A DNA stretch of 64,000 nt, taken from contig CAZIOH010000003.1 of NCBI GenBank assembly GCA_964540815.1, positions 1,685 through 65,684 on the forward strand, written 5' to 3'. The notes under the pieces were generated by a model. It saw only the letters and a program-made list of their open reading frames with translations. It did no database searches and was not told the DNA's origin. How positions within the stretch are numbered: position 1 is the stretch's first letter; each line of letters opens with the position of its first letter. A program made the position numbers and the translations under genes. The stretch is from an uncultured Myxococcales bacterium. GTDB taxonomy: Bacteria; Myxococcota_A; Polyangia; Fen-1088. Positions 8,189-44,876 of the stretch are shown one piece after another.

Positions 8189-8269
8189 GGACCATGGTCT
8201 TATCACCTCGCGGACACCAATCAAAGGCGGGCCACCGCCCGACCCATCTCCCACTCCGGCGCTCGAGCC

Positions 8270-19542: not shown

Positions 19543-19614
19543 ACCGACAGTCTGGGCATCCGACCGCGCCGAGTGCAACCGGGGTGTGCGAGGTCACGCG
19601 CCCGCGGGAGCGGC

Positions 19615-25276: not shown

Positions 25277-25400
25277 TCGTGAGACCGAGGCCAAATCCGC
25301 GCCCGCGGGCCGCGCGCGGGCATCGCCGTGTGGGCATCGCCAGGTGGGCGCGCCCCTTACATGACATGCACCTTGCGCGATCCGGTTCCAGAGGCCCGCG

Positions 25401-25472
25401 GTTGCGCAACACCTCGCACGCCCCCGTCCAAGAGGAGGTTTCCTCGGGGCGGCGGTTGCGCAACCGCCGCCC
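25401..25472. promoter_or_regulatory. Two GTTGCGCAAC palindromes, the second inside a perfect 26-bp palindrome; candidate enhancer/operator sites
   Basis: GTTGCGCAAC at 25401-25410 and 25455-25464 (54 bp apart); GGGCGGCGGTTGC/GCAACCGCCGCCC at 25447-25472. Confidence 0.6.
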
Positions 25473-25628
25473 TTCAGCCGGGTCGGCGAGACGCCGATTC
25501 TTCCCTCGCCAGATCTTTCCGACGCGGACCGACGAAAATTGGCCCCGGAACGGGCGGGCCAGCGCAAGCTCATCGCCCGGTTCGACCATCCCGAGCGTGA
25601 GGCGCCACCCAGAAGCCCTGGGCACGGG

Positions 25629-25644
25629 TGGCCTCGAACTTGCT
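25629..25644 (+). promoter_or_regulatory. Candidate sigma54 (-24/-12) promoter
   Basis: TGGCCT-CGAAC-TTGCT vs consensus TGGCAC-N5-TTGCW with exact GG-N10-GC spacing; AAGGAG at 25662 and ATG at 25672 follow. Confidence 0.6.
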
Positions 25645-25671
25645 CGGCACTTCCGCCACATGAAGGAGCCC

Positions 25672-27924
25672 ATGACCAAACTCATCGCGGACCTCAGGCT
25701 ATCCACCCCGTCGACGCGGCGATCGCGCCGAGCGCTGGCACCGAGGGTCGCGGCCCTCTCCCTCTTGGGCTCGTTCGGCTGCTCGGCCAACCAGAGCTCG
25801 GCCCCCGCGCTGCCCGCCGATGTTCGCGCGATCATCTTCCTGCAGCGGGTGCCGCAGAAGGCCACTGGCAACGTCTTCGACTACACCAGCTTCGAGCCGG
25901 GCGGACGCATCGCGCAGCTCGAGCCGCCTTCTCCCGATGGGAAGCTCACGGTGCTCACCTCGGATCCGATGTGGGATGGCGCGGACTTCATGTCGTGGGA
26001 CCTGTCGTTCGACGCCAAGCAGATCGCCTTCTCGGCACGGACCCAGGACTCGACCCGCTATCACATCTACACGATGTCCCTCGGTGGGACGGCGTCCGCC
26101 CCTCCGACCGTGACGCAGGTGACCGAGGGCGACAACGACTACGTCTTTCCCGTCTACTTGCCCGGCCAGCGGCTCATGTTCACCACCAACAAGAACGTGG
26201 AGGCGGACACGCCCCAGTTCCAGGACGAGTACGAGCGCGCCATCACCGCCCAGGTCGGGACCATCAACCTCGATGGCTCGAACGAGGTGCTCGGCCCGCG
26301 CAATGTGTCGCACCGGGTGGCGCCCGCGCTGCTCCCCGACGGACACGTCCTTTACACCGAGTGGCGGCACCTCGGCCCGGTCAACGACGGGCACCTGCGC
26401 CTCATGAACGGGGACATGACCACCGTACGCGAGGCCTTCGGCAGCGAGGCCGGCGCCGTCGGGGGGACCAACAGCTACCTGCGCGGACGTTACGTGGCGC
26501 AGACCCCCACGGGGGTCGAGGTGGTGGCCGTCGGAACATCCCGCGACCGCACGCTGCAGGCCGGCAAGCTCCTGCTCATCAACCTGGCCAAGAGCGAGGC
26601 GACCTCCAGCTTCAAGGACATGACCCCGCTCGTCCCCGGCGATCGCTCGCGCTCCTTCAGCGGCGTCGGGCGCTACTACGACGCCGAGCCGGTGGGCGCC
26701 GTCGCCGCGCGCACCTTCCTCGTGTCCTGGGCGGATGGCCCGGTGCAGTCCGAGGTGGTCGCCACCGCCGGCAACGCCAACTTCGGGATCTACGTGTTCG
26801 AGTTCGATCCCACGGCCACGGGGGCCTCGAGCGGTGGGGTTCGCCACCCGCTCTACGACGATCCGGCCTACTGGGACGTGCAGGCCCGCCCCGTGCGGCC
26901 GCGCGCCGAGCCTCCCGTGACCTCGTCCCCCATCGATGGCGATGGCTTCGTGCTGAGCGCCATCAACGTCTACGACACCAGCCTGCCCGATCAGGTGAAC
27001 ATTCCCCCCGGCGAGGCGGTGAAGGTCCGGCTCATCGAGGGCTTCTCCGGCGAGGAGGGGCCGCGCCTGTTCGGCACCACCGAGTTCGACGGGCAGTCGC
27101 TCTACGGCGAGGTGCCGGTCGCCCCGGACGGCTCGTTCTCGGCGCGCGTTCCGGCCAACGTGCCGGTGCACCAGCAGGTGATCGACAAGTTCGGGATCGC
27201 GCTGGCCGACGAGCCGGTGTGGATCAGCGGGCGGGCCGGCGAGGCCCGCACCTGCGGGGGCTGCCACGAGGACCGCGCCAAGAGCCCGACCGTCACCCCC
27301 GGGCAGATCGACGCGATCGTGCAGGGGGCGGTGGACCTCAACGTGCCCCGGGCCCAGAGGGTCTCGATGGACTTCAGCCCCGCTCAGGTGCGCGGCGTCC
27401 CCTGGGACAAGGCCATTCAGCCCATCCTCGATGCCAAGTGCGTGGCCTGCCACGACGGCGATCCGGCCAAGCCCGGCAATCCCAGCTTCACGGTCACGGA
27501 CATGACCACCGGCACCGCGCAGACCTTCGTGTTCGACCTGACGGGCAAGCCGCTGCCGGTGACGGTGGGCGAGAAGATGACCGGGGCCTTCACGGCCTCT
27601 TACATCTCGGTGATGGGCATCGGCGAGCTGCTCGGCGAGGACGCCGTGTCCATCAGCGGGACGCCCTTCGCCTTCGCCAAGGGGGGCGCCGCCCGCGACT
27701 CGACCATCATCCAGACGCTGAATCCGCCCCAGCGCGACCCGGTGGTGGACACCACCGTGCGCCGCTGGCCAGGCGCGGCGGTGCACCCGGTGGACGTGGG
27801 CGGCACCGAGCTCACCCCGGACGAGTACTACCTGCTCGGCCTCGGCATCGACATGGGCGGGCAGTTCTACTCCCGCGAGAACAAGGACGAAGCCATCGCC
27901 TACAACCAGTCGGGTGCGCCATGA
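25672..27924 (+). CDS. Hydrazine synthase alpha-like (HzsA-related) lipoprotein: TolB/PD40-like propeller, HZS-alpha middle domain, two CXXCH
   Basis: Lipobox LGSFGC; SFDAKQIAFSA, PALLPDGHVLYTEW; FSARVPANVP.HQQVIDKFG.A...W...RAGEARTCGGCHE; AIQPILDAKCVACHDG. Confidence 0.75.
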   Translation: MTKLIADLRLSTPSTRRSRRALAPRVAALSLLGSFGCSANQSSAPALPADVRAIIFLQRVPQKATGNVFDYTSFEPGGRIAQLEPPSPDGKLTVLTSDPMWDGADFMSWDLSFDAKQIAFSARTQDSTRYHIYTMSLGGTASAPPTVTQVTEGDNDYVFPVYLPGQRLMFTTNKNVEADTPQFQDEYERAITAQVGTINLDGSNEVLGPRNVSHRVAPALLPDGHVLYTEWRHLGPVNDGHLRLMNGDMTTVREAFGSEAGAVGGTNSYLRGRYVAQTPTGVEVVAVGTSRDRTLQAGKLLLINLAKSEATSSFKDMTPLVPGDRSRSFSGVGRYYDAEPVGAVAARTFLVSWADGPVQSEVVATAGNANFGIYVFEFDPTATGASSGGVRHPLYDDPAYWDVQARPVRPRAEPPVTSSPIDGDGFVLSAINVYDTSLPDQVNIPPGEAVKVRLIEGFSGEEGPRLFGTTEFDGQSLYGEVPVAPDGSFSARVPANVPVHQQVIDKFGIALADEPVWISGRAGEARTCGGCHEDRAKSPTVTPGQIDAIVQGAVDLNVPRAQRVSMDFSPAQVRGVPWDKAIQPILDAKCVACHDGDPAKPGNPSFTVTDMTTGTAQTFVFDLTGKPLPVTVGEKMTGAFTASYISVMGIGELLGEDAVSISGTPFAFAKGGAARDSTIIQTLNPPQRDPVVDTTVRRWPGAAVHPVDVGGTELTPDEYYLLGLGIDMGGQFYSRENKDEAIAYNQSGAP

Positions 27925-28886
27925 ACCGGGGCGCCACCAGCCAGCCGTCGTCTACCCTCAGAAGCACCCCCGGAGGCACCCGCATGTTGAAGTCCGCGAT
28001 ACCGTCCGCGCCCCGTCCCCTCCCGAGCCGGCTCACCGGCACCGTCACCGTCGCCTGTTGGGCCGCGATGGTGGCAGGCGCCGTGGCGATCACCCCTCGC
28101 CCGGCGCGCGCCGGACAGGGGAGCAGCCCGCAAGCCGTCGCCTCCGCCATCGCCTCGGGCTCCCCGGACGCCATCAAGGCCGAGCTCGAGCGCGCCGAGC
28201 ACCTGGTCTGTGCCGCCTGCGTGGACTACGTGCTGCCGCTCATCGACAACGCCGATGCCGGCATCCGCGAGGTCGCGGGGTGGTGGCTGATCCGGCGTGG
28301 TGCCAGTCGCCCGGTGTTCCGAGACATGCTCACGCGTCTCGGTGAGCCGAGCTCCATTCGCGCCCGCAATGCCGCGGACATCCTCGGGGCGTTCGCGCTG
28401 CCGCAGGCCATCCCGGCGCTCGGCGCGGCGCTGTCCAACCCGGTCTTCACCCCCGAGGCGCGGGCGGCCATGGCGGCGGCCCTCGGGAAGATTCACCGTC
28501 CAGAGGCGGCCGCGCCGCTCGGCGCCGCCCTGGCGGACGGCGTGCCCGAGGTCCGGGCCGCGGCGCTGGCGGCCCTGCGCCACGTCGACGGGTTCCGGGA
28601 TGGGCAGGTGGCGGTCCCGCTGCTGACCGACGCGGATCCGGAGGTGCGTGTCCAGGCCATCTTCACGGTCGCCGAACGCGGAATCACCGCGGCGGCCATG
28701 CCGCTCGTCGGCTTGCTGCAGAGCGATCCCAGCGCCAGCGTGCGCAGGCGGGCAGCCTGGGCGCTGGGCCAGATCCACGCGTCCGCGGCGATCGCGGCCG
28801 GGCCGCTCGGCCAGGCCGCGAGCTCCGACGCCTCGCCCTTCGTCCGCTCGCTGGCGCGGGCCTCACTGGCGGCGCTGTCGCGTTGA
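27921..28886 (+). CDS. Exported HEAT-repeat protein
   Basis: Signal ending PARA; repeats such as LADGVPEVRAAALAAL, LTDADPEVRVQAIFTV, LQSDPSASVRRRAAWALG; CAAC motif; 4-bp overlaps on both sides. Confidence 0.85.
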   Translation: MNRGATSQPSSTLRSTPGGTRMLKSAIPSAPRPLPSRLTGTVTVACWAAMVAGAVAITPRPARAGQGSSPQAVASAIASGSPDAIKAELERAEHLVCAACVDYVLPLIDNADAGIREVAGWWLIRRGASRPVFRDMLTRLGEPSSIRARNAADILGAFALPQAIPALGAALSNPVFTPEARAAMAAALGKIHRPEAAAPLGAALADGVPEVRAAALAALRHVDGFRDGQVAVPLLTDADPEVRVQAIFTVAERGITAAAMPLVGLLQSDPSASVRRRAAWALGQIHASAAIAAGPLGQAASSDASPFVRSLARASLAALSR

Positions 28887-31800
28887 CCGGCCGAGGGCGG
28901 ACAGCGGCGGCGCGCGGGTGGTCTTGGCCCGTGCGCGCGAGGTGGTGGGAGACCGGCGCGCTCGACGTATGCGCGAGCACCGCCGTCGCCGTCGCCGTCG
29001 CCATGGGCGTTGGCGCGGCGGGCTGCGCGCTGCCGAAGCCCGCGGAGCAGCACTACTACGACCAGCACATTCAGCCGTTCCTCAACAGCTTCTGCGTCGG
29101 GAACACCTCGCCCTGCCACGCGATCGATCCGGGCACCGGGCTGGCGCTCGGCAACCTCGATCTGTCGTCCTTCGAGGCGGTCCAGAAGCGCCCGGACGTC
29201 CTGCGCACCTACGGCAGCTATCCGATGCCGCTCCTGCTCATGAAGGCGGTTCCGGAGTCGTCGGTGCAGATCCCCTACCGCGGGAGGTTCCTTCAAAGCG
29301 AGATCCGTCACGCCGGAGGCAAGAGCCTGTCGACCAGCTCGGACGCCTTCGCCGAGCTGTCGCGGTGGCTGGCCAACGGCGCCAACCGGGACGGCGTCGC
29401 GCCGACCGGAAGCAACCGGCAGGGGCAAGGAGCCTGCAACACCAGCATCCCGGGCGATCGCAACACCAGCGTGGTCGACACGTCGAGCACCGCCTACCAG
29501 CTCTTCACCGCCAACGTGGCCCCGATGCTGAAGGCGTCGTGCACCTTCGCCACCTGCCACAGCTCGCCTCAGTCGGACTTCTACCTGACCTGCGGCACGG
29601 ACGACGCCCAGCAGCGCTTCAACTTCCTGCAGGCAGCCGGGTTCGTCGCCCCCAGGCCCGATCCGACCGCGGCCGCCGGCACCGGCGTCGAGCAGAGCGA
29701 GATCCTGCTGCGGCCCCTGTCCCCCGCCTCGGGTGGGGTCAGTCACACCGGCGGCGTCTTCTTCGCGTCGCGCAGCGACGACACCTGGAAGAGGTGGAGG
29801 GACTGGGCGGTGGCGGTGCAGGCCGATCCCCCCGAGCAGTTCGTCCGCTCGGCGGGCCAGCAGTTCTTCGAGGCGAACGTGATGCCGAAGCTCCTGCAAC
29901 GTGGGTGCGCCCTCGAGGGGTGTCACAGCCCGAACGGCTTCAACGACTATCGCCTGCGCCCGGGCGGCCAGGGCTTCTTTGCCCCGACGGCTCTGCGTCG
30001 CAACTACGAGACCACCGTCAACGAGTTCATGGCCGTCGACAGCGTGGACGTCACGCAGTCGCGTGCGGTCAAGAAGACCCTCTTTGCGGCCAGCGGGGGC
30101 ATTCCCCACCGTGGCGGCCCGTTGCTCGAGGGGACGGCCGACACCTCGTCGGCGGCGGCCTGCCCGGCCACCTACGATCCCGCCACCGCCACCGCTTTTT
30201 GCACCTTCGTCGAGTGGCACCGCCTCGAGCGCGTCGACCGAGCCTCCAGCGTCTCGCCCATGGGCGCGGCGGCGGCGGGGGCGGCGGCGGGCGGGCAGAG
30301 CCTCACGCTCGCGTTCGTGGCGCGCCCACCCGATCCGGACAACCTGCTCGAGTTCGACACCTATCGCCCGGGGGCGGATCTCCGGCTGGCGGACGCGGCG
30401 CTCGATGCCATGGGCCGGGTCACCGCGGTGACCAATTCACGCAGCGCCCTCGCGGGCTGCGCAGGGCTCGACGCCGGGGGTGGCGGGCTCGACGTGCGCG
30501 GCCCCGACTGGAGCTACGACGCGAGCCAGCTGGTCTTTGCGGCCCGCACGGCCGCGGCCTCCGGGCTCGATCTGTGGGTGCTGGACGTGACCGCGGGTGG
30601 CGTGCCCGGGGCCTGCCGGCGTCTGACCAGCGACGATGGGCGGATGCTGACCTTCGTGCGCGTGCACAACTTCGATCCGATGTTCGCGCCGGATGGAACC
30701 ATCGTGTTCGCCTCGACCCGGGCCGGGACCCTCACCCCGAAGACCTTCCTGCCGAACGCGGACCTCTTTCGCACGGGACCGGCGGCGGACTTCGGAAACG
30801 TCCAGCAGATGACCTACCTGCTCGGGTCGGAGCTGTCACCGGCCATGATGCAGGACGGGCGCATCTCGTTCACCGCCGAGAAGGCTTCGCCCGACTTTTA
30901 CCAGCTGTCAGGGCGCCGGATGAACTGGGATCTCTCCGACTACCATCCGCTGCTCGCCCAGCGCGCCCAGTCGACCACCACCTTCGATACCACGCTGTAC
31001 CCGTCGGTGGGGTATGCGCAGGCCACCGAGATCCGCGAGGGGCTGGACCGCAACTTCCTGGTCATCCTCTCCGACGTCGGGGCCAAGGGCGGTGGCGGGA
31101 CCCTCGCGACCTTCAACCGGTCGATCGGGCCCTTCGAGGCCGACCGCACCGAGAAGACGTTTCTGCGCTCGCTGCACATCGTGGACAGCCAGGCCACCGG
31201 GCGATCGAGCACGGTGGGTGCGTACCGCTCCCCGACGTCGTTGCCGAACGGGGAGATCCTGGCCTCGTACGCCGCCAACGTGCACGACACCCTGGCCGAC
31301 GTGCCGACCTACGCGCTGGTGGCGATGAGCATCGGCCAAGGGGCCGACGACGCCAGCGGCGATGCCGCGCGGCGCGTGCTGCTCGGCAGCCCGACCCAGT
31401 CCTACGTGGAGGCCACCCTCGGGTACAAGCGCTCGGCCACCGCGCTCTTCCACAACATCCCGCAGCTGGTGTTCGGTGGTCACGACATGGGGAACGACTA
31501 TGCGGTCATGCACTTCCCCGATCTCCCGATGCTCGCCACCCTGCTCGGCGACAACCTCCGCCACGGACGCAACGTCGCGCGGTTCGACGCGGCCACGGCC
31601 CTCAAGATCTACGAGGAGCGTCCGCCACCCGCGCCGAACCCGCCCGGGCTCCAGGGGTCACAGAACGTGTACGTGGATCGGATCTCGCTCGGCAGCGTGC
31701 CGCTCGCGCCCGATCACTCGGTCAAGGTCTACGTGCCGGCCCGCAAGCCGCTGGTCCTCGAGCTGGTGGACGGCGATGGGAAGCCGGTCCTGACCATGGG

Positions 31801-31990
31801 CGAGGAGCACCAGGTCTCCCCCGGCGAGTACATCACGCCGGGCGTCCCGCGCCGGCTCTTCAACGGGGTCTGCGGCGGCTGTCACGGCAGCATCAGCGGC
31901 AACGAGCTCGACGTCGCGGTCACCGTCGACGCGCTCACCGGCGCCTCGGTGAGCAGCTCCCGCGACCTCGAGCCCCAGGCGCTGAGGTGA
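28883..31990 (+). CDS. Second HzsA-related lipoprotein with CX6CH, two CX4CH and one CXXCH motif plus PD40 propeller
   Basis: Lipobox GAAGC; CVGNTSPCH, CTFATCH, CALEGCH, CGGCH; HNFDPMFAPDGTIVFASTR, SPAMMQDGRISFT; VKVYVPARKPLVLELVDGDG middle domain. Start may be downstream of 28883. Confidence 0.7.
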   Translation: MTGRGRTAAARGWSWPVRARWWETGALDVCASTAVAVAVAMGVGAAGCALPKPAEQHYYDQHIQPFLNSFCVGNTSPCHAIDPGTGLALGNLDLSSFEAVQKRPDVLRTYGSYPMPLLLMKAVPESSVQIPYRGRFLQSEIRHAGGKSLSTSSDAFAELSRWLANGANRDGVAPTGSNRQGQGACNTSIPGDRNTSVVDTSSTAYQLFTANVAPMLKASCTFATCHSSPQSDFYLTCGTDDAQQRFNFLQAAGFVAPRPDPTAAAGTGVEQSEILLRPLSPASGGVSHTGGVFFASRSDDTWKRWRDWAVAVQADPPEQFVRSAGQQFFEANVMPKLLQRGCALEGCHSPNGFNDYRLRPGGQGFFAPTALRRNYETTVNEFMAVDSVDVTQSRAVKKTLFAASGGIPHRGGPLLEGTADTSSAAACPATYDPATATAFCTFVEWHRLERVDRASSVSPMGAAAAGAAAGGQSLTLAFVARPPDPDNLLEFDTYRPGADLRLADAALDAMGRVTAVTNSRSALAGCAGLDAGGGGLDVRGPDWSYDASQLVFAARTAAASGLDLWVLDVTAGGVPGACRRLTSDDGRMLTFVRVHNFDPMFAPDGTIVFASTRAGTLTPKTFLPNADLFRTGPAADFGNVQQMTYLLGSELSPAMMQDGRISFTAEKASPDFYQLSGRRMNWDLSDYHPLLAQRAQSTTTFDTTLYPSVGYAQATEIREGLDRNFLVILSDVGAKGGGGTLATFNRSIGPFEADRTEKTFLRSLHIVDSQATGRSSTVGAYRSPTSLPNGEILASYAANVHDTLADVPTYALVAMSIGQGADDASGDAARRVLLGSPTQSYVEATLGYKRSATALFHNIPQLVFGGHDMGNDYAVMHFPDLPMLATLLGDNLRHGRNVARFDAATALKIYEERPPPAPNPPGLQGSQNVYVDRISLGSVPLAPDHSVKVYVPARKPLVLELVDGDGKPVLTMGEEHQVSPGEYITPGVPRRLFNGVCGGCHGSISGNELDVAVTVDALTGASVSSSRDLEPQALR

Positions 31991-32017
31991 CTCGGCTCCG
32001 CGGAAGCCGGGGTTCGC

Positions 32018-33262
32018 TCAGAAGCGCAGCGAGAGGGCGAGCTGGCCGATGTAGGCGCGACGGCGATCGGCGTTCGGCGCCAGGGCGGAGGCGAGCTCGT
32101 AGAAGAGGCCCTCGAACTTGGCGGACAGCTCGATCTCGTTGAAGAGGGTCCTGGCATCCCCTTCAGGCAGGCGCAGGTAGGCCACCTTGCCCCCGAGCAG
32201 GGTGTTCTGCATGGTGGACAGCTCGCGGTCCCCGGTCCAGTACTGCCCGACTGGCCCCGTCAGGCGGTAGCCCTCGGCGTCCCGGTAGAACACCGCCCCC
32301 ACCTGCGAGTGGACCCGGGCCAGGGCCGACAGGATGAGGAAGCGCGTGAGGTACTCGTGAAAGGCGAGCTCGGCCGAGTACGCCTGCAGGGCCCAGGTGT
32401 CACGGTAGACCCGCGCCATGCCCTGCAGGGACGCGTGCAGGGCGGGAACGGCGTAGGCGGCGCGGCCGAAGACCGCGAAGCGCTGGCGCAAGCCGGGCAA
32501 GCTCTCCTGGGGTGTCCGCCCGGCGCTGCCGAGCTCGACCCGCCGGTATGGGTTCGACTGGAAGCCATCCAGGATCTGCACGGTCCCTCCACCTTGCAAG
32601 AGGAGGCGCGGCGTGACGGCCCAGGTGAGCGAGGGCTCGAGCGAGTCGATGTCGAGGTGGCGGGTGACGATCTGGGGATCGCCTTGAAAGCAATGGTCCG
32701 ACTTCACCAGGGCCAGGCGCTCCAGCGGATTGCCCACGGCGGCTGCGTTGTTCCGATCGCACACCCGATCGAAGTTGTGCGTGAAGGACAGCCCCAGCGT
32801 GAAGGCGTGCTCGGCAAAGTCGCTGCGGGTCGCCACGGTCAGCGAATGGGACTGGTAGTCATGCTCCCACCCGTAGCTGTACCCCACGGTCACGTCGGCG
32901 ACCGGGCGGGTGTAGGTCACGCTCCCGCGCACCTGCTGCCGCGTGTCCGAGAACTTGGTCGCCGACGAGACCGCGTCGACCCCGAAGATGACCGGGGTCG
33001 CCCCGGTGACGATGTCCACCGAGTAGCCAGCCGCCAGCTTCACCGACGCGCCGAGCATCGTGTCGACGTCGGTCTGCGGATGGATCACGGTCACCCCGTC
33101 GTTGGTGGACGACGGCTCCCGGAACACCGTGAGGTGCTGCGCCGCCGAGGTCTCCCCCGCCTGCGCTTCCCCCGAGCCGCCCCCCAGGCCGAGCGCCAAG
33201 CCCATCGACACGATCAGCAGCCTCGCCCGGAGCCGCCCCTTCCCGCGCCGGATCAGTTGCAT
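32018..33262 (-). CDS. DUF3570-like outer-membrane protein
   Basis: Signal peptide; VDIVTGATP...DAVSSAT, E.DYQS, GFQSNPYRRV, P.E.LP..RQR, YRDTW, FYRD..Y...DREL motifs; terminal F. Confidence 0.75.
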   Translation of the reverse strand: MQLIRRGKGRLRARLLIVSMGLALGLGGGSGEAQAGETSAAQHLTVFREPSSTNDGVTVIHPQTDVDTMLGASVKLAAGYSVDIVTGATPVIFGVDAVSSATKFSDTRQQVRGSVTYTRPVADVTVGYSYGWEHDYQSHSLTVATRSDFAEHAFTLGLSFTHNFDRVCDRNNAAAVGNPLERLALVKSDHCFQGDPQIVTRHLDIDSLEPSLTWAVTPRLLLQGGGTVQILDGFQSNPYRRVELGSAGRTPQESLPGLRQRFAVFGRAAYAVPALHASLQGMARVYRDTWALQAYSAELAFHEYLTRFLILSALARVHSQVGAVFYRDAEGYRLTGPVGQYWTGDRELSTMQNTLLGGKVAYLRLPEGDARTLFNEIELSAKFEGLFYELASALAPNADRRRAYIGQLALSLRF

Positions 33263-33618
33263 CCGCAGCCGCCTCCGGAGGTGCCCGTGCCGCCGATGGC
33301 CCCCTCCCGGTTCGCGAGCACGTGCTCGTCGGCGGCGCGCTCCTGCGGATCGGCGTCGAAGCGCATGATGCGATCGGCGAGCAGCTCCCGCTGGTGGGCC
33401 TTGACCCCCACATGACCGCATCCGCTGGCGAGCACCGCCGACAGTGCCGCCGCCGCCACCAACCACGGGCGGAAGGCGCGGACATCCGCGCGCAGCCGCC
33501 CGCGAAGACCCTCGCGAACGCGCGCACGCGGCTCAGAAGACGATGGCGAGCGCACCGGTGTACTCCTCCATGCGTTGGGTGTGGTTCGGATCGAAGACCA
33601 CGTAGTGCCGCACGTCAC
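33253..33618 (-). CDS. DUF4266-like small lipoprotein
   Basis: LASGC lipobox; VKAHQRELLADRIM...REGAIGGTGTSGGGCGCN terminus. True start is downstream of 33618 (about 33460-33530). Confidence 0.85.
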   Translation of the reverse strand: MTCGTTWSSIRTTPNAWRSTPVRSPSSSEPRARVREGLRGRLRADVRAFRPWLVAAAALSAVLASGCGHVGVKAHQRELLADRIMRFDADPQERAADEHVLANREGAIGGTGTSGGGCGCN

Positions 33619-34372
33619 CCCGCAACGTCACGCGCTTCTTGAGGGCCACCAGCAGCCCTCCGCCCACGTTGACCACCGCGTAGGTGCCGGTGCGGATGGC
33701 GAACTGGTCGGCCTTCTTGCGACTGGCGGCCCCACCGGCCGCCGCGCCGAGAAAGGGGGTCACGGGCGCGCTCGGAAACACGAACACGTTCGGCCCGCCG
33801 CCGAAGTAGAAGACGTCGAGCTCGTTGCCCACGGTCTCGCCCGCGAAGCCCTCCAGCGACAGGTGCGGCTCGAACAGGAACGCCGGGCGGAAGATGAAGG
33901 CCGAATCTCCCCCGAGGAGTCCGGCCGAGAAGGACAGCCCGAACCGTCCCTCGAGCAGCGGCGATGGCGAGAACACCGCCTCCGAGAGGCGGTGCCACAG
34001 CGAGGGCCCACGGTGGGCCTCCGCCGTGTCGAGGTCGAGCGGGAACACCTCGTCCCCGAGCAACCAACCCCCGGTTCCATCCGGCAGGCGCACCCGGAAC
34101 CAGCTGGCGGACGTCGCGCGCTCGACCACCGGCAGCACCTCGCCCCGCGTCGCCACGTAGACCACCCGGAACGCCGCGCCTGGACCGGTGTGAACGGCGG
34201 CCTGCTCGGCGAGCACGCGCACCAGCGCCTCGTCGTCGGCGCGGGCCTCCGATGGCCAGACGGCCGCTGCGCACAGACAGGCGGCGATCACCAGGATCAG
34301 CCCCGGCGGCCGCGGCCCACCCGGCCGCCGCCGCCCGGGCATCGGCGAGCTCCGGCCCGCACCGGCGCTCAC
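33533..34372 (-). CDS. SH3-like domain plus outer-membrane beta-barrel protein
   Basis: VHTGPGAAFRVV....RGE.L.V.....SWFRVRLPDGTGGW (SH3b-like); alternating beta strands ending YTGALAIVF; GTGA overlap. Confidence 0.75.
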   Translation of the reverse strand: MSAGAGRSSPMPGRRRPGGPRPPGLILVIAACLCAAAVWPSEARADDEALVRVLAEQAAVHTGPGAAFRVVYVATRGEVLPVVERATSASWFRVRLPDGTGGWLLGDEVFPLDLDTAEAHRGPSLWHRLSEAVFSPSPLLEGRFGLSFSAGLLGGDSAFIFRPAFLFEPHLSLEGFAGETVGNELDVFYFGGGPNVFVFPSAPVTPFLGAAAGGAASRKKADQFAIRTGTYAVVNVGGGLLVALKKRVTLRGDVRHYVVFDPNHTQRMEEYTGALAIVF

Positions 34373-34824
34373 GGCCCCGCCACCCACTGCGTGAGCAACC
34401 CGAGCTCGGGTCCGTTCGGCTCGAACAGCTTGTCGCCGCCGTGCTGGCTGAGACCGGATGGCTTGGTGTAAAGCTCGCTCCCGGCCACGTCCGAGCAGTT
34501 CATCTGGTTCGCCGCCGACTGGTAGAGGGCATCCCAGTCCGAGCCCGCCACCAGCGGGAACGTGGGCGTGCTGGTCGAGGTGGGCGCCACGATGTGCAGC
34601 GGCCGGTTGGCGCTGGCGTGGCAGCTGGCGTCCCCGCAGGTCTTGCCCGAATAGCTCTGCGCCAGGTAGCTGGGCCAGATCTGCGCGACGAAGAACTGCG
34701 CGGAAGGTCGGCAGGCGTTGACGTCGGCCGGCGGCGCGCCGACGTCAACCGTGCTGCACGCGCCGAGGCCGAGCCCGAGCGCGACCAGCGCCGCGCGCAC
34801 CGCCAGGCGGCGGCTCGCGATCAA
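34369..34824 (-). CDS. Small lipoprotein with CX4CH motif (putative cytochrome c-like)
   Basis: TTG 34824 overlaps upstream stop; lipobox LGLGAC; QFFVAQIWPSYL...TCGDASCH...KPSGLSQHGGDKLF...LTQW. Confidence 0.7.
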   Translation of the reverse strand: MIASRRLAVRAALVALGLGLGACSTVDVGAPPADVNACRPSAQFFVAQIWPSYLAQSYSGKTCGDASCHASANRPLHIVAPTSTSTPTFPLVAGSDWDALYQSAANQMNCSDVAGSELYTKPSGLSQHGGDKLFEPNGPELGLLTQWVAGP

Positions 34825-35459
34825 AACGCGTACCTCATCCAGGCGGTGGTCACCAGCAGCTGACCACGCCCGAGACCATTCGCCTGCAAGTAGCTGGCGC
34901 GCACCCCGAGCGCGAAGTGCCGGGACAGGGTGTGGTACTCGAGCCCGAGCCCCCCGCCATAGACCGGCGAGGTCCGCTGATCGTTGAGGCTCGCCGTGGC
35001 GAGGACGTTGGTGGACGTGTGGAGCATCCCCCCGTCCGCCGTGACCGAGGCCGCGAAGCTGCGGTGGCGCAGCGACACGCGCAGCGCGCCCGTGAGCTGG
35101 TAGAGCTGCAGGAGCTCCCCGTCCTGGGGAGCCTGGGGAAACTGCGTCGTGTGGGTCGACCCGACGCCCCGCGCCTCGAGCGCCAGCCACCGCGTGAGGT
35201 CGTAGCCCGCGACGAGGCCGAGCCCGAAGCCGGGGCCGAGGTGCGCGTGCAGCGGGCCGAGGGGCAAGACCGCGCCCACCTCCCCCGCCGTGTAGAGCCC
35301 GTAGGCAAACTTGCTCGGATCGGCCAGGACTTGCGGCGTCGGCGCATCGGTGACCTGCGCGCGGGCCACGCGCGGGGCTCCGGGGACGGCCCCGAGCGCC
35401 ATCAGCGCGGCCGCCACCTTCACGACCAGATGCGGGAAGAGAGAACGCCGCGGGCTCAT
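34821..35459 (-). CDS. GltH/CglE/NfsH-like small outer-membrane beta-barrel
   Basis: Signal ending VARA; GLYTAGEVG, GFGLGLVAGYDL..WLALE, GGGLGLEYHTLSRHFALG; terminal F; position after gltG-like gene. Confidence 0.65.
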   Translation of the reverse strand: MSPRRSLFPHLVVKVAAALMALGAVPGAPRVARAQVTDAPTPQVLADPSKFAYGLYTAGEVGAVLPLGPLHAHLGPGFGLGLVAGYDLTRWLALEARGVGSTHTTQFPQAPQDGELLQLYQLTGALRVSLRHRSFAASVTADGGMLHTSTNVLATASLNDQRTSPVYGGGLGLEYHTLSRHFALGVRASYLQANGLGRGQLLVTTAWMRYAF

Positions 35460-36277
35460 TGTCTCGGCGGGATGGTCGGGGCGAAGGTCGCCGGTTGGGG
35501 AACGAATTCATCGGCGCCGCTCGACCACAACCGATTGTCATCGTCGCGGATCCGCACCAGGAACCGACAGGTCATGTGCTGGGTGGCCGCGACCTGCAAG
35601 GTGACCTCCCACAGGGCGGGTCGCACGAAGCCCGCCGGCAGCATCTCGAGGCCGATCGGGTTCACCTCCGAGCGATTCACGATGACCGCCTGGAACGGGG
35701 CCATGAACCGCCCCATCGCGTCGAGATCCAGGGCGGCCTCGTGGAAGTCGTCCTCGCGCACGGTCCCCTGAAGAATCCCGCCCGGAGCCAGGGTCTCGGG
35801 CGTCGGCTCGATGAGTCCGAAGAACGGTGACTGCTGGTTGGCGGTGGCGAACGCCGTGGCCACCGCGTCCTCGTCGTAGCGGGTGAACTCGTTGGCACCA
35901 TCCACGTGCAGGGTGAAGGTCCCCGCCGCGTCGCCCAGGTTCGTGACGGTGTAGCGAACCTCGACATGGAACCTGTCCTCGCGCACCTCCGGGAGCGGGA
36001 CCGGGTAGGCCAGCTTCTGCTGGAGTGCCTGTCGGTCGCGGTTCTCGGCGGCGGTGGACGCCCGCAAGCGCAACGCCACCGTCCCCTTGACCCCAAACGA
36101 GCCGGCGCCGCCCGCGCCGCCCGCGCCCGGCATGGTCATCGCCTGTCCGGGCTGGCCGTTCACCTCGATGGCCATGGTGGCGGGGACGTACACCGGATCG
36201 TTGGCGTCGCAGCCCACGATCCCTCCACTCGCCCCACACCCGATCAGCGCTACCAGCACCGGCGGGGAGACTCTCAC
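35456..36277 (-). CDS. Hypothetical lipoprotein
   Basis: GTG 36277 overlaps upstream stop; GIVGC lipobox-like; good codon usage; coupled to both neighbours. Confidence 0.7.
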   Translation of the reverse strand: MRVSPPVLVALIGCGASGGIVGCDANDPVYVPATMAIEVNGQPGQAMTMPGAGGAGGAGSFGVKGTVALRLRASTAAENRDRQALQQKLAYPVPLPEVREDRFHVEVRYTVTNLGDAAGTFTLHVDGANEFTRYDEDAVATAFATANQQSPFFGLIEPTPETLAPGGILQGTVREDDFHEAALDLDAMGRFMAPFQAVIVNRSEVNPIGLEMLPAGFVRPALWEVTLQVAATQHMTCRFLVRIRDDDNRLWSSGADEFVPQPATFAPTIPPRQ

Positions 36278-37812
36278 GTGCCACCCTTGAACAGGAACGG
36301 ATAGCTCTGCACCACCGTTCGGCCATCGGATCTGGGGAAGGCCCACTGCTTCACCTGGCGCACGATGCAGCCCTCGACCGCCTCGTCGCCCATGGTCGTG
36401 ACCGCGATCCTGGACTTCTCGACGGCGCCCTCCGGACCGATGACCCAGTACACCTCGATCTTGCCGCCGAGGGTTGGCTTGCGCTGCAGCTCCTTCTCGT
36501 AGCAGAACTTGATCGCGTTCGCGTGCGCCCGCACCACGCGCGCCACCTGCTCCTTGGTGAGCCCTCCCCCCTCGTCGAGGGTGCCGGTCGCGATGTCGAG
36601 CTTCACCTCGCGTTCCTTGCGACTGGCGAGCGTCGGCGCGTGGCCATGTCCGTGGTTCGAGCGCCCGCCGGTGTCGAGCTCTCCGGCCCCGAGCAGGTGG
36701 CCGCTGCCGGTTCCACCGCCCCCCAGGCCTGCGCCGCTGGTCGCGAGCCCGCCCGAGCCCCGTCCCGCCACCACCGCCTTGGCGCCGCTCAATCCGGCCA
36801 CCGCCTGCTCGAGCTCGAGGCTGTTGTTCGCGAACAGCTTGGCCAGCCCCGAGCCCTGCGGGCGCTCCTTGCCGATGAGGCCCAGCAAGCCGACCTTCGA
36901 GACCTTGTCGCGCAGGAGATCCTTCTCGCCCTTGGGGACGACCGACTCCTTGGCCACGGCATCGCTCCGGCCGACGCGCCCGCGTTCCCGCTCCGCCCGC
37001 TTGGTCTGGCCGGCGTCCTCCCGCTTCTTCTCCTCGACCTTCTTCTCGTCCTTTTTGGGACCCCCGCGCTCGGGTGGTGCGGGCGGCGGCGCGGGTGGAA
37101 GCAGCTTGGCCACCCGCTCCCGCGAAAGGGCCAGCGGACGCGGATCCTCGTTCGGCGCGAACACCAGGAGCGCTGCCAGAAACATGGCCATGGCCGCCGA
37201 GGTCCCGGCGATGGTGCGGGCAAGGAACGGCTCGCGCTCGATGAGCGGCGGGCGCGCCACGTCGGGGGGGGGGTCCACGAACCGGACCTCGATGCGCAGG
37301 GCGGGCACCTCCCGGAAGAACAGGCGCGCCCGATCCCCAGGCGCAAGCTCGATCTCCCGCACGGCGGGGTCGCGCTTCACCGCGCGCCCACCTTGCAGGA
37401 TCTCCGCGACGTCCTGGCGCTGACCCGCCACGGTGACCTCACCGCCGAGATCCTCCGTCAGCCGCAACCGGAAGCTCCCGCGGGGCTTGCACGGAACCAG
37501 CAAGGCGTACCGATCTCCCGCCCGGCGCGATCGAAGGCGCGGCGTGTTCATCGAGGCCCGATGCGACGGCCCGAGCGTGATCCGCTCGCGCGGGCGCACC
37601 AGGCGGAACGCAAGGATCTTGTCCTGCCAGACCAGCGCGATCTGGAGCATCCGAGGAAGCACGCGAGAGGGAGCAGACATGAGGTTGGTTGGCGGGGCGG
37701 GCGAAGCGGGCGCGGAGGGACGAAGCCGCGACGGGTCGTCCCCCGTCTCCCGTTCCGGGTTCGGATGAGGGTCCGGGTCGAGTGAAGCCACGGCTCTAGA
37801 GATTCGGGTCAT
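36274..37812 (-). CDS. GltG/NfsG-like protein (AgmX/PglI C-terminal, TonB-C-like domain)
   Basis: MLQIALVWQDKIL N-terminus, one TM helix, Pro/Lys/Gly-rich linker, C-terminal LTKEQVARVVRAH...IKFCYEKELQRKPTLGGKI...W.FP...YPF.F. Start may be ATG 37680. Confidence 0.85.
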   Translation of the reverse strand: MTRISRAVASLDPDPHPNPERETGDDPSRLRPSAPASPAPPTNLMSAPSRVLPRMLQIALVWQDKILAFRLVRPRERITLGPSHRASMNTPRLRSRRAGDRYALLVPCKPRGSFRLRLTEDLGGEVTVAGQRQDVAEILQGGRAVKRDPAVREIELAPGDRARLFFREVPALRIEVRFVDPPPDVARPPLIEREPFLARTIAGTSAAMAMFLAALLVFAPNEDPRPLALSRERVAKLLPPAPPPAPPERGGPKKDEKKVEEKKREDAGQTKRAERERGRVGRSDAVAKESVVPKGEKDLLRDKVSKVGLLGLIGKERPQGSGLAKLFANNSLELEQAVAGLSGAKAVVAGRGSGGLATSGAGLGGGGTGSGHLLGAGELDTGGRSNHGHGHAPTLASRKEREVKLDIATGTLDEGGGLTKEQVARVVRAHANAIKFCYEKELQRKPTLGGKIEVYWVIGPEGAVEKSRIAVTTMGDEAVEGCIVRQVKQWAFPRSDGRTVVQSYPFLFKGGT

Positions 37813-38410
37813 CGGCGGTTCTCGCGAGTTCCTTCATGAACGAACGCTCGGCCGGGGCCGACATGTCGAGCTCGAGCTTGACGCGGTTCAGGAAGTAGAG
37901 CAGCTGCGGGGTCTTGAGCTTGCCTTCCACGTCCATGGCACCGAACGAGTACACCTTGGTCTTGGAGGGCTTTCCGGGTGGCATGGGTACATTCGCGGCG
38001 GCGCCGCCTTCGGCCTCGTCGCCGGTCGAACGGGGGGACGCCGCCGGGGTAGGAGAGCTGTGCGAGCTGTCGGTCTGGCTGGCCACCTCGTCGCCGTCGG
38101 CCGCGGCGCCTGCCAGGCGTTCGGCCGTGTCCTCGCGACCGCCCGTCGTGTCCTGTCCTTCTTTCTTCCCCGGCCCCCTCGGCCTCCCGGCGCGCGACGT
38201 GCGAGCGGCGGGCGCAGGCGCGGGTGCGCGCTTCTTCCGAGGGCCTCCACCCTGGCTTCCGTGGGCGCCCGCGACGCTGACGACTGCCCGGGCCCGGGCC
38301 TCGGCCGGGCGCGCCCCGCCCCCCCCGACCCGGAGCACGGTGACCACCGCCGCCGCCGAGACCAGCCACGCCCACCCCGTCGAGCTGGCCGTCATCCGCC
38401 TCCACATCAC
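37796..38410 (-). CDS. GltF/CglF/NfsF-like protein
   Basis: Signal, disordered linker, C-terminal KTKVYSFGAMDVEGKLKTPQLLYFLNR...RSFMKEL resembling CglF; position between TPR and GltG-like genes. Confidence 0.7.
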   Translation of the reverse strand: MMWRRMTASSTGWAWLVSAAAVVTVLRVGGGGARPAEARARAVVSVAGAHGSQGGGPRKKRAPAPAPAARTSRAGRPRGPGKKEGQDTTGGREDTAERLAGAAADGDEVASQTDSSHSSPTPAASPRSTGDEAEGGAAANVPMPPGKPSKTKVYSFGAMDVEGKLKTPQLLYFLNRVKLELDMSAPAERSFMKELARTADDPNL

Positions 38411-39580
38411 GGTTTGTCGCTCCTCGCCTGCAGGCTCTTCTGGGTCGCGGCGAGGTCCTTCAACCGGTCGAGCGCCTCCCGCCGTCGGGGATCGCCCTCC
38501 TCCGTCAGCTCGGCGAAGGCCTGAAAGGCCGCGCGCGCCTGGGCCGGTTGCTTCTCGTAGTCCATCGCCAGGATCCCGCTGTCAAACAGGGCCGCCGCGT
38601 GCTCCGGCTCGAGCTCGAGAGCCCGGGCGTAGGCCCGGCGCGCCTCGTCGAAGTGGCCTTGCCCGCGCGCCGCCACCCCCAGCGCGACGTAGGCGTCCGC
38701 GTCGGCCTCGGTCGCGTCGATGGCCCGCTGCAGCTCCGCGTGGGCGCGGGTGTAGTCTCCACAGTCGAGGTAGACCACGGCCTTGTTGAGCCGCGCCTCG
38801 ATGTATCGGGGATCGAGCTCGGTGGCCTTCTGGAAGCTCGAGAACGCCTCCTGGTCCCGGCCTCGGGCGAAGGCCACCAGGCCAAGGTTGTTCCACACGA
38901 ACGCGCTCTTCCCGTCGAGCGCGAGGGCCTTTCGCAGCGCCGACTCGGCCAGCTCGAGCTTGTCCATCTTGTAATAGATGAGGCCGAGCGAGTTGTAGGC
39001 GCGCACCATCTGCTTGACGTCCTCACCCGCCTGCCCGAGCGCGATGCGGGTCTGCGCCAGCGCCTCCGTCAGATCGCCTGCGTCACGCAAGGCCTGGATG
39101 TAGCAGTTGCGAAGCTCCGCGTCCGCGGGCGCGGCTGCCAGCCGCTCGCCATACAGCCGCGCCGCCTGCTTGAACTGCCCGGAGCGGCGCAGGGCCTCGC
39201 CGAGCGCCAGCGCGGTGGGCCGCGAGGCGGGCTGAATCTCGAGCGCGCGCCGAAACTCGCCGGCGGCTCGCCCGAAGTTCCCGCGGCTCGCATCGAGCCA
39301 CCCGAGATCGTGCCACGCCTCGAAGAACCTGGGCTCGAGTCGGGTGGCCTCGAGCAGGTGGCGACGGGCCTCGGCGTGGCTGCCGGTCCCTTGCCGAAGA
39401 GCGAGGAGGCCGCTGGCGAACTCGGCGCGCGCCTCGTTCGCCACGACGGGGAGCACCGCGGCGGCGATCGGCCTTGCCGCCGCGGAGGGTGCGGGAGCGC
39501 CGTGACGGCACCCCGTGCCCACCAGGCCCGCGCCCCCGCACACCGCGAACGCCAGGCACACGCCCAGCTTGAGCCGTCCA

Positions 39581-39591
<11 letters not shown>
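38407..39591 (-). CDS. GltE/AglT/NfsE-like TPR lipoprotein
   Basis: LVGTGC lipobox; serial TPRs (AYNSLGLIYY, VWNNLGLVAF, ARLNKAVVYL, AYVALGVAAR). Confidence 0.75.
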
Positions 39592-42944
<3,353 letters not shown>

Positions 42945-42961
<17 letters not shown>

Positions 42962-44876
42962 ATTCGTCCGCCCAGTATTCGCCCTCGTAGGGCCAGTATT
43001 CCTCGTCGTCGCGAATCAAACCTTCGGTCTCGAGCTTGCCGAAGAGATCGCTCGAATAGCGCCCCGCCTGCAGGTTGGCGATCTCGATCTCGAGGCGCTT
43101 CTTCTTCCCGATGACCGCGTCGATGTGGGTGAGGCGCGCCTGACGAAGGATGGACCTCAAGCGATGGTCGAGGTCCTGAAGGGCGCTCTCGGCCAGCCCC
43201 GCCGCCGCATCGACCAGGCCGGCACGAAGCCGCCGCGTCTGTCGACCGAGCTCCTGCAGCTTCACCGTCTCGTTGGCGAAGGGTCCGCCGAGGCTGACCG
43301 GACGCGCCAGACGCGCGACCTGGCGCGCCCTGCCCAGCAGGTCGACGGCGTCGTCGTGGGTCTCACGCGTCTCCTCCCCACCGCGGCTGTCGGCCACCAG
43401 CGCCTCGACCTCCGCCACCAGGGCGGCGGCCTCGGGCGCCTCCGCGCCCCGCGCCGCGCTTGCCCCGTCGATCGGGGCGGCCCGAGCGGCCGTCAGGGCG
43501 TCCCAGATGGCCACCTCGTGCGGCAGCGCATCCGCCTCCCGGTCGAGCGCCGTCAGATAGGTCACGTACCGGTAGAACCTGGGATCGAGCTTGAGCAGCT
43601 CGACGATCGGGTCGTGCTCCCGGCCGAGCGCATCGCGCGCCAGCAGCCGCCGGTAGAGCGTTCGCCGGTGGTCGGGCTCGGCGATCAGGCGGGACACCTC
43701 GGCCTCGAGCGGGGCGTACCGATCGACCAGCGCCCCGAGGTGCGCGCGCACGTCATCGAACCGGCAGGACTTGAGCTCGATCATCGCGCGCAAGAGCAAC
43801 ACGTCGGGGCCGAGCGGGGAGCTGGGGAAGGCCCGGTCGAACTGCTCGATGAAGGCGCGCGCCGCCTGGTACTCACCCTTCTGGAACATCGACCACGCGG
43901 CCTCGAACAGCGCATCCGGCAAGCGCTCCGATTCCTCGGGCACTCGAAAGTAGAAGTAGTAGGCGTCGTCGTAGCGCCCCTGCTCGTGGGCGATGCGCCC
44001 GAGGGCCAGATAGGCGAGATCCTTGATGGCCCAGTAGCGCCCGTCGACGAAGAACGAGAAGGCGTCGTTGTCCGCCTGCTCGACGATCTCGCACAGGTTG
44101 CGACGGGCCAGCCCATAGTGCCGGGTCCGCGCATTCACCAGTCCCCGAAAGTAGAGTGCCGACGCGAAGAAGCGGGACTGGCGCCCGACCACCGCGAAGG
44201 CCTCGGCCGCCTCGGCGAAGCGCCCGGCGCCGTACAGCCCCTTGCCGGACAGGTAGGCCCGCTCGTTGCGCGCGTCCGTGGGCAGTCGCTCTCGCGGCGC
44301 GGCCGCGTCGAGGCGCGCCAGCACGCCGGCCTCATCGTGCGTCTCGAGCGCGATGTCCACCATGGCGCGGTACCCGGCCCCGAAGAAGGGGGATGACGAT
44401 CCGGCCTCGAGCACCCGCCGCAGGAAGCCCTCCGCGGCGCGATAGGCCCCGCCCCGCAGCAGGGCCCGCCCGAGCGTGAGCTCCGCCCCCTGGAACTCGG
44501 GATCGGCGTGAAACGCCGCGAAGCGATTCGACTCCACCAGGGTGGCCAGCCGGGCGGTCGCCGCGTGGACGTTGCCCGCGACCAGCTCCTGCTGGGCCAG
44601 CGCCAGCCCTGCCCGCAGCTCCTCGAGCGACCCCGCGCCCCCGCCCGCCCCGATCCGCGCTTGCTCGAGATCCAGGAAGAGGGGCTTGTCCGGCGGCCCG
44701 GACCGTGGCTCGTCCGCCGCCCCCACCGTCGCGTTGCCCGCAGGCGACGGCTGCGCGTGCGCCTCACCCACACCCACGCCCACGCCCACGCCCACGCTGC
44801 GCCCGGTGCGATCCACCGCGCCCCACGAGGCCAGCGCACTCAAGATCGCCAGGCAGTGCCGCGTGGGATTTCTCAT
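42945..44876 (-). CDS. GltC/NfsC-like TPR protein
   Basis: Signal peptide, TPRs (LPDALFEAAWSMF), coiled coil and terminal EEYWPYEGEYWADE motif characteristic of GltC-type proteins. Confidence 0.8.

Follow-up and report, generated by a model that had tools for sequence, protein, structure and literature searches.

A predicted CX4CH cytochrome c domain family shared by a hydrazine synthase alpha-like lipoprotein and a Glt-like operon with DUF3570 and DUF4266 in uncultured Myxococcota

Among the described systems that come closest to the locus presented here is that of the proteins DUF3570 and DUF4266: the former has been experimentally shown to be a substrate of ApbE flavinylation in Chlorobium luteolum, the latter has been described as a possible redox-cycling protein with a CXC motif, and the clusters in which they are encoded have genes for ApbE and a thioredoxin-like protein as well, and in many cases for DsbD (Meheust et al. 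2021, PMC8238504). We have analyzed a 64-kb stretch of DNA from an uncultured Myxococcales bacterium (henceforth the window, with 66-76% G+C), in which a DUF3570 protein with the [S/T]GA[S/T] motif likewise lies next to a DUF4266 protein with a C-terminal CXC motif, but the partners of the pair are different, namely cytochrome-like lipoproteins and proteins resembling those of the Glt machinery. The Glt system of Myxococcus xanthus (GltA-K, CglE/GltH) has in common with the window the gene order GltC/D/E/(F)/G/H-like, and it is not known to contain a cytochrome, flavoprotein, DUF3570 or DUF4266 component. Two convergent operons are concerned: on the plus strand, the genes for a protein of the hydrazine synthase alpha (HZS-alpha) type, for a HEAT-repeat protein and for a big lipoprotein; on the minus strand, a Glt-like operon that includes the gene for a small lipoprotein and has those for DUF4266 and DUF3570 as its final two. 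Both lipoproteins carry the same cytochrome-like domain, with two cysteines usually separated by four residues before a histidine, and it is around this domain that the following analysis revolves.

An earlier note on this DNA had described in the two lipoproteins a shared pattern of CX4CH followed by H(x)GG, and all the motifs that it claimed are present. The big lipoprotein is encoded by the open reading frame (ORF) 28883..31990 of the plus strand, yielding 1035 amino acids from the TTG at 28883 or 995 from the ATG at 29003, and has the lipobox AAGC at 29015-29026. Its three copies of the domain are the divergent repeat 1 (29048..29386, with a CX6CH motif, CVGNTSPCH, at 29093-29119 and HAGG at 29309-29320), repeat 2 (29489..29821, with a CX4CH motif, CTFATCH, at 29540-29560 and HTGG at 29744-29755) and repeat 3 (29855..30232, with a CX4CH motif, CALEGCH, at 29906-29926 and HRGG at 30107-30118, the latter being HR[AG]G in many homologues). 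The small lipoprotein of 151 amino acids (34369..34824, minus strand, lipobox LGAC at 34756-34767) consists of a single such domain (34372-34713) with the CX4CH motif CGDASCH at 34618-34638; its second motif, at 34435-34443, reads H-GG (as QHGG) and not H-x-GG. Profile-profile comparison of the family alignments with hhalign gave 95.4% (E 1.8e-8) for the small protein against repeat 2, 91.9% for the small protein against repeat 3 and 96.6% for repeat 2 against repeat 3; repeat 1 was weaker, reaching 54% with repeat 2 and 37% with the small protein. At the level of profiles, the claim of a domain occurring three times in the large lipoprotein and forming the body of the small one is thus borne out, repeat 1 being the weakest case, and the comparison confirms the four copies as one homologous domain of ~110 residues that goes beyond chance motifs.

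The layout of the domain comprises an N-terminal helix, the C-Xn-CH motif, a mid helix, a helix with the consensus S-x-L-L-x-x-P, the loop with H-x-G-G and a C-terminal helix containing Trp. Conservation of its motifs was seen in 52 clusters of the small family and in 66 matches to the N-terminal part of the big protein. Among 26 small-family members, C63, C68 and H69 are invariant and H128 is nearly so; the two cysteines, the adjacent histidine and the distal histidine of repeats 2 and 3 are all invariant across 36 full-length big-protein homologues with identities down to 22%. Repeat 1 has CX6 or CX8 spacing in close homologues of the big protein, and in distant ones it shows CX4CH with the same S.LL..P...H.GG consensus as the other repeats; its motif loop has a low predicted local distance difference test score (pLDDT) in the AlphaFold2 (AF2) model. 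Each domain contains also an extra pair of cysteines, but these pairs look like ordinary periplasmic disulfides, since their positions differ from domain to domain, and only C-Xn-CH and the distal histidine are common to all copies. The AF2 model of the small protein has pLDDT >90 over residues 40-150. The lipoboxes of both proteins follow hydrophobic leaders, and therefore the two would be exported to the compartment where heme c is attached. In the sequence TTGA, the TTG start of each of the two genes runs into the stop codon of its upstream neighbor (the CglE-like gene for the small one, at 34821-34824; the HEAT gene for the big one, at 28883-28886), which suggests that each is translationally coupled to the gene preceding it.

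The domain extends well beyond the window. A profile of 35 sequences, composed of the small family with repeats 2 and 3 (A4), was searched against 1.84 billion representative proteins and matched, after clustering at 50% identity, 2,688 clusters at E<=1e-3, 337 of them with E<=1e-10; the matched proteins range from 100 to 2,800 residues and have one to six copies of the domain each. In 327 re-aligned copies from the best 139 proteins, counting occupied positions, the first cysteine is conserved in 301/313, the second in 316/318, the adjacent histidine in 316/318 and the distal histidine of HxGG in 283/286. Spacing between the cysteines is CX4CH in 230 copies and CXXCH in 59, followed by CX5 (9), CX6 (8), CX3 (5), CX7 (1) and CX10 (1), and in some proteins CXXCH and CX4CH copies stand side by side. 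Examples of the CXXCH form, which is present in Acidobacteriota and Alphaproteobacteria, are P0132 with three copies ('CITCH ... FHAGG') and P0142 with six copies among Big_2 domains. No model of Pfam or NCBIfam covers the domain as scanned in the window copies, nor did the distant relatives scanned with NCBIfam return any domain-level family; the family is thus uncatalogued in both databases. This breadth has a consequence for the argument of the earlier note that the shared domain makes the two operons one system: because the domain is widespread, in 2,688 clusters of many architectures and from other phyla, and is fused to unrelated modules, the argument is weak, and, judged by the note's own condition for refutation, the distribution of the domain is independent of these operons.

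Gene order provides better ground. The closest relatives of the window are all metagenome-assembled genomes (MAGs) labelled Polyangia, Myxococcales or Myxococcota, and the carriers found are all uncultured. In 18 of 18 species-level genomes, the small lipoprotein is encoded between the CglE-like gene and the gene for an outer-membrane protein with an SH3 domain; the order of the Glt-like genes is kept in these 18 loci, and the small cytochrome has been found nowhere but in this operon. The HZS-alpha-type paralogue and the HEAT gene come in the same order in all loci with enough flank, and the operon of HZS-alpha-type, HEAT and big genes lies near the Glt-like operon in all 15 Polyangia loci with enough flank, convergent within 10 kb in 13 of them; in the other two it is found past DUF3570 on the same contig, at distances of about 13 and 17 kb. 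Such proximity is kept even though the proteins of the 15 genomes are only 46-62% identical. Further out, distant relatives of the big protein (~25% identity), were found from the single protein P0174 in 22 loci of other Myxococcota lineages (L022-L043); in 17 of these, DUF3570 comes directly after them on the same strand, in most cases with a detected DUF4266, and Glt-like genes are near in a single locus. Because these distant relatives keep DUF3570 and DUF4266 mostly without Glt genes, the deepest conserved unit is the cytochrome/propeller lipoprotein of the big type together with DUF4266 and DUF3570, and in the clade of the window the latter two have come to form the end of the Glt-like operon.

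This observation can be read in another way, which we consider rather unlikely and yet the most serious of the alternatives: the proteins would be true cytochromes, but the operons independent neighbors, the big, HEAT and HZS-alpha-type genes forming with DUF4266 and DUF3570 a stand-alone redox system that in one clade just happens to adjoin a Glt-like operon or to have had its tail genes joined to it, and the small cytochrome serving the Glt-like machine separately. The wide occurrence of the domain in unrelated architectures and phyla fits this reading, as does the presence of big-protein relatives with DUF4266/DUF3570 but no Glt genes in 21 of the 22 distant loci. Two aspects of the layout also weigh against a single system: the convergent operons are separate transcripts, and in some genomes the space between them is taken up by variable regulators or by 13-17 kb of other DNA. 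Independence would nevertheless have to account for proximity in every one of 15 genomes so diverged, for a small cytochrome restricted to the Glt-like operon and, above all, for DUF4266 and DUF3570, the conserved partners of the big family, being encoded within that same operon. That the two operons form one system is therefore supported by conserved gene order and by the link of big-protein relatives with DUF4266 and DUF3570, and no longer on the basis of the shared domain from which the proposal had started. At two related loci, L001 and L002, a response regulator or hybrid histidine kinase is inserted between the operons.

The probable nature of the domain emerges from its CXXCH relatives. 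A profile of 26 CXXCH copies (A7) aligns by hhalign with the CX4CH profile A4 at 99.6% (E 1.4e-23), the motifs being in register save for a gap of two residues and HxGG lying upon HxGG. When A7 is compared with the sequences of the PDB, it yields 107 matches at E<=10, all of them c-type cytochromes; the best is over the whole domain with FoxE (5MAB, E 1.9e-4), an Fe(II) oxidase with two hemes from Rhodobacter ferrooxidans, and further matches include CcoP, PccH, hydrazine synthase alpha and mitochondrial iso-1 cytochrome c. Since the homologous CXXCH copies match only c-type cytochromes in the PDB, the cytochrome call is supported. Moreover, the CXXCH relatives exceed the Pfam thresholds of Cytochrom_C and Cytochrome_CBB3 when their copies are summed, as in the case of P0142 with 51 bits for Cytochrom_C against a cut-off of 21.3.

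The resemblance is to class I cytochromes c, such as FoxE and the mitochondrial protein, which have one heme motif per helical domain of ~100 residues and the same order of elements, that is, an N-terminal helix, Cys-Cys-His, a helix with S/T-x-x-L-x-x-P, a loop with the axial ligand followed by Gly-Gly, and a C-terminal helix; the CXXCH-relative profile spans the whole of FoxE domain 2 and aligns also over iso-1 cytochrome c. Helix order in the AF2 models agrees with this scheme (N-terminal helix, motif, mid helix, short helix, ligand loop and C-terminal helix), but the motif following the predicted N-terminal helix has non-canonical spacing, CX4CH or, in repeat 1, CX6CH, instead of two residues, and the candidate for the sixth ligand is a histidine one residue past the methionine. 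The HxGG histidine aligns one residue after the methionine of 'RMPPG' in FoxE, the axial ligand described in PMC10654088 and matched here by residue count. It aligns also one residue after Met80 of yeast cytochrome c ('KMAFGG'), with S..L..P upon 'SEYLTNP'; the yeast sequence used for this alignment is consistent with the PDB matches of A7. The earlier suggestion that the downstream histidine could be the distal ligand thus accords with both its near-invariance and its predicted position in the loop that bears the axial methionine in FoxE and mitochondrial cytochrome c.

The same note had pointed to cytochrome c3 of Desulfovibrio as a precedent, which is valid for the chemistry and not for the fold. 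CX4CH is recognized as a motif for heme c, with examples in cytochrome c3, hydrazine dehydrogenase, multiheme cytochromes and the NCBIfam model TIGR01904 (the Geobacter CxxxxCH/CxxCH domain, to which we found a sub-threshold match), and bis-His ligation, predicted here, would be a further trait in common with c3 and other CX4CH multiheme proteins. However, cytochrome c3 packs four hemes in about 110 residues with almost no secondary structure, whereas one motif is present here per helical domain of ~110 residues, and no homology was detected between the two. Identity with the class III tetraheme cytochrome was consequently rejected on heme density, one motif per ~110-125-residue domain and not four per ~110; the cytochrome-like reading of CX4CH...H(x)GG stands by homology to CXXCH cytochromes, in a fold that is predicted to be class-I-like. 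Comparison with the planctomycete-type Pfam family PSCyt1 (PF07635) reveals a common opening, F..V.PIL...C..CH, and a common closing helix, L..W...GA, and some relatives of the domain sit in proteins with PSD2, PSCyt3 and PSD4. PSCyt1 differs in its CXXCH spacing and in having a Met-Pro-Pro ligand motif instead of HxGG; it gave no match to the four window copies at E<=10, and the best it reached, in a single distant relative, was a weak 18 bits where the cut-off is 22.

This evidence needs to be qualified with several points that weigh against a cytochrome. The four isolated window copies have no match in Pfam at E<=10, cytochrome models included; the small-family profile (A2) finds among PDB sequences only a spurious kinase match (E 1.2); and Foldseek returned no match at E<=10 between the confident AF2 model of the small protein and the PDB, leaving the similarity of fold unconfirmed. 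The link to solved cytochromes is transitive, passing through the CXXCH relatives rather than the CX4CH copies, and its E-values are marginal (1.9e-4 for FoxE and 0.05-0.4 for mitochondrial cytochrome c). The case for heme binding is wholly based on sequence. In addition, spacings of 2 to 10 residues between the cysteines would require unusually permissive heme lyases, repeat 1 with its CX6 or CX8 is the least secure copy, and no genes for cytochrome c maturation or ApbE were found in the scanned parts of the window.

Some of these points would be expected if the domain had kept a cytochrome-like fold without heme, its C-Xn-C forming a disulfide or, together with the two histidines, a Zn, Cu or Fe site, with a structural, metal or thiol-redox role beside DUF4266. 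We regard this explanation as unlikely. It would fit with spacings not usually accepted by canonical heme lyases, with the lack of direct matches between the CX4CH profiles and cytochrome models or structures, and with the thiol-based character of the neighboring DUF4266 and of the DsbD/thioredoxin-type systems linked to DUF3570. Yet a relic site would not retain two cysteines, histidine and distal histidine at about 99% over hundreds of diverged copies; CX4CH is after all used for heme c elsewhere; CXXCH and CX4CH copies occur in the same proteins; and the conserved distal ligand lies where cytochromes have theirs. That the patterns arose by chance is virtually inconceivable, for although codons for Cys, His and Gly abound in high-GC frames, and only three of the six C-X4-CH matches in the six frames of the window are the described sites, the remaining three lying in non-coding frames, chance is refuted by the profile homology of the copies, their near-invariance in homologues and thousands of significant database matches. 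We hold that the assignment of the domain to a class-I-like family of cytochromes c is well supported computationally; real binding of heme is quite likely on the strength of homology and conservation, and its ligation would probably be bis-His.

In the big lipoprotein, the lipobox and the three CXnCH domains are followed by a beta-propeller and a middle domain of HZS-alpha type (30290..31990, plus strand, with an approximate start; TolB/HZS-alpha-like) with a canonical CGGCH motif at 31871-31885, the residues of which (C957, C960 and H961) show no or almost no variation in the 36 full-length homologues (alignment A5). Pfam recognizes PD40 and, below threshold, HZS_alpha. In Foldseek, the AF2 model (pLDDT 84.3, predicted template modeling score 0.87) comes closest to hydrazine synthase alpha (5C2V_A, 611 columns, E 3.7e-20) and next to TolB, and the likeness covers the C-terminal ~560 residues. 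The HZS-alpha-type paralogue of 881 amino acids, which has no N-terminal repeats (25279..27924, plus strand; CGGCH at 27253-27267 and CVACH at 27439-27453), scores 52.8 bits on Pfam HZS_alpha against a cut-off of 26.6; its true start is probably downstream of 25279. With the hydrazine synthase alpha of Kuenenia (5C2V), the big lipoprotein shares the propeller and the heme-bearing middle domain, and the 881-residue paralogue has the C-terminal cytochrome domain as well, but the Kuenenia protein has no N-terminal CX4CH domains and is not a lipoprotein, whereas the big protein has three such domains and a lipid anchor signal. We have rejected the identity of either protein as a hydrazine synthase because they score only 19 bits (big protein) and 59.9 bits (paralogue) on NCBIfam hydrazine_alpha (NF052339), far below the equivalog cut-off of 800. 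A search of the literature on hydrazine-synthase-like proteins in myxobacteria returned nothing relevant.

The distant relatives of the big protein (P0164-P0226, in the C-terminal ~120 columns of alignment A6) end in an additional cytochrome-like domain with its own CX4CH, 'DARCxxAGCH', and the tail 'ELDAP ... RWIDLGA', for which NCBIfam shows a match to the heme domain at the C-terminus of hydrazine synthase alpha; the big protein of the window is devoid of it, and the 881-residue paralogue has a CXXCH version. Among the ENA-derived homologues of the big protein (P0057-P0118, alignment A3), many are fragments or frame switches, for instance P0075 and P0080, which are probably due to indel errors in long-read MAG assemblies and inflate the number of apparent short 'proteins' in the family. 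The HEAT-repeat protein between the two HZS-alpha-like genes (27948..28883, plus strand) is kept in all related loci; it shows weak matches to HEAT proteins of the phycobilisome lyase type, NblB and CpcE, and its orthologues match HEAT_2. The NblB/CpcE match may be generic HEAT similarity, although it deserves mention beside candidates for tetrapyrrole binding.

The other end of the conserved unit is formed by the DUF3570 protein (32018..33466, minus strand), which matches Pfam DUF3570 (PF12094) with 81.9 bits against a cut-off of 25 and has its ApbE-type flavinylation motif, TGAT, at 32996-33007, and by the small lipoprotein DUF4266 (33253..33618, minus strand), recognized by Pfam on orthologues and terminating in GGGCGCN with the CXC motif. 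Of 28 loci in which a DUF3570 ORF was matched, 26 keep the [ST]GA[ST] motif, and the CXC tail of DUF4266 is kept in nearly all related loci. Of the partners reported elsewhere, ApbE, DsbD and thioredoxin-like proteins, as well as ccm and ccs, were absent from the 20 likely-coding ORFs scanned outside the operons, a scan that was not exhaustive, and neither ApbE nor thioredoxin-like proteins nor DsbD appeared in the flanks of the related loci examined; these genes may lie elsewhere in the genome. An AhpC/TSA peroxiredoxin is encoded at 7700-8269, 24 kb from the locus, and looks unrelated. In the Polyangiaceae MAG with locus L031 (7270-9856, plus strand), an imelysin (Peptidase_M75) and a diheme DHOR peroxidase-like protein precede the relative of the big protein; such a pairing is usually linked to iron uptake or oxidation, and these neighbors give hints of iron or peroxide chemistry.

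The minus-strand operon (34821..44876 upstream of the small cytochrome gene) resembles the Glt system with NCBIfam matches that are all below curated cut-offs. In order of transcription, it encodes GltC-like (42945-44876, 117.7 vs cut-off 450), GltD-like TPR (39581-42961), GltE-like (38407-39591, 107 vs 225), a protein of 204 amino acids (37796-38410), GltG-like (36274-37812, 189.8 vs 650), a protein of 296 amino acids (35456-36346) and a CglE-like outer-membrane protein (34821-35459, 61.6 vs 70). The 204- and 296-residue proteins have no family match, and the position of each is kept in all 18 related loci. Between the small cytochrome gene and DUF4266 lies the gene for the SH3 domain and outer-membrane beta-barrel protein (33533..34387, minus strand; Pfam SH3_3 and NCBIfam OMP_myx_plus). 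Because the scores for GltC, GltE, GltG and CglE all remain below the equivalog cut-offs, the cluster is by its sequence relationships a paralogous Glt/Nfs-like machine and not the gliding motor of M. xanthus; also, no named Myxococcus protein was among the matches of the small-family search. We considered and rejected the small lipoprotein as an orthologue of CglF/GltF: GltF sits between GltE and GltG, a slot that is held by the 204-residue protein, while the small cytochrome gene stands after the CglE-like gene. Elsewhere in the window, a Ser/Thr protein kinase gene (23270-25573, minus strand) is divergent from the HZS-alpha-like gene, in an arrangement like that of locus L001 (20116-20477); upstream of the kinase, a hemerythrin-domain protein (18766-19593, minus strand) adjoins an RCC1-repeat protein of 1382 amino acids (19615-23763, minus strand), with no evident link to the present finding.

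Taken as a whole, the locus is best explained by cytochrome domains of class I type with CX4CH motifs and by a heme/flavin/thiol module tied to a Glt-like machine, a reading that we consider likely. Its direct basis lies in the homology of the domains, the invariance of their motifs, the homology to CXXCH cytochromes and the conserved gene order; from these we infer that heme is attached, that its ligation is bis-His and that electrons flow between the parts, as well as any role in the Glt-like machine. In this scheme, after export by Sec and lipidation, one heme c would be bound by thioether bonds to the two cysteines of each domain, with the motif histidine as proximal and the HxGG histidine as distal ligand, producing low-spin bis-His hemes suited to electron transfer. 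The big lipoprotein would have three such hemes, plus a canonical CXXCH heme in its HZS-alpha-like propeller module. For the small lipoprotein, a cytochrome with a single heme is expected, its translation coupled to that of the CglE-like outer-membrane protein. The two could then exchange electrons with the thiol pair of DUF4266 and the flavins of DUF3570, at the outer membrane or in the periplasm. The small and big lipoproteins together with DUF4266 and DUF3570 most likely constitute a periplasmic or outer-membrane electron-transfer module of heme, flavin and thiol centers, which in this clade of Polyangia is genetically tied to a Glt-like trans-envelope machine that it may drive, gate or simply accompany.

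A bolder version of the same reading, which we find quite improbable, has a conduit anchored to the outer membrane, made of the small monoheme protein, the four-heme propeller, the CXC protein DUF4266 and the flavinylated DUF3570 barrel, as a physical part of the Glt-like machine. If this were true, the apparatus would be redox-driven, redox-gated or able to deliver electrons to the cell surface, for example to iron or in extracellular electron transfer, and a motility-type machine coupled to electron transfer has not been described previously.

What is new is a family of predicted cytochrome c domains, with CX4CH and probable bis-His ligation, that is uncurated and associated with DUF3570/DUF4266 and a Glt-like operon, an association previously undescribed. 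The DUF3570/DUF4266 system gains from it a new conserved partner, a lipoprotein of HZS-alpha type predicted to be multi-heme, and an electron-transfer chain becomes testable. With CX4CH in ~70% of the aligned copies, counts of heme proteins that are based on CXXCH overlook such domains, and the cytochrome content of Myxococcota, Acidobacteriota and other soil lineages would be underestimated. Finally, the presence of predicted redox proteins inside a Glt-like operon makes redox input to a motility-type envelope machine a concrete hypothesis.

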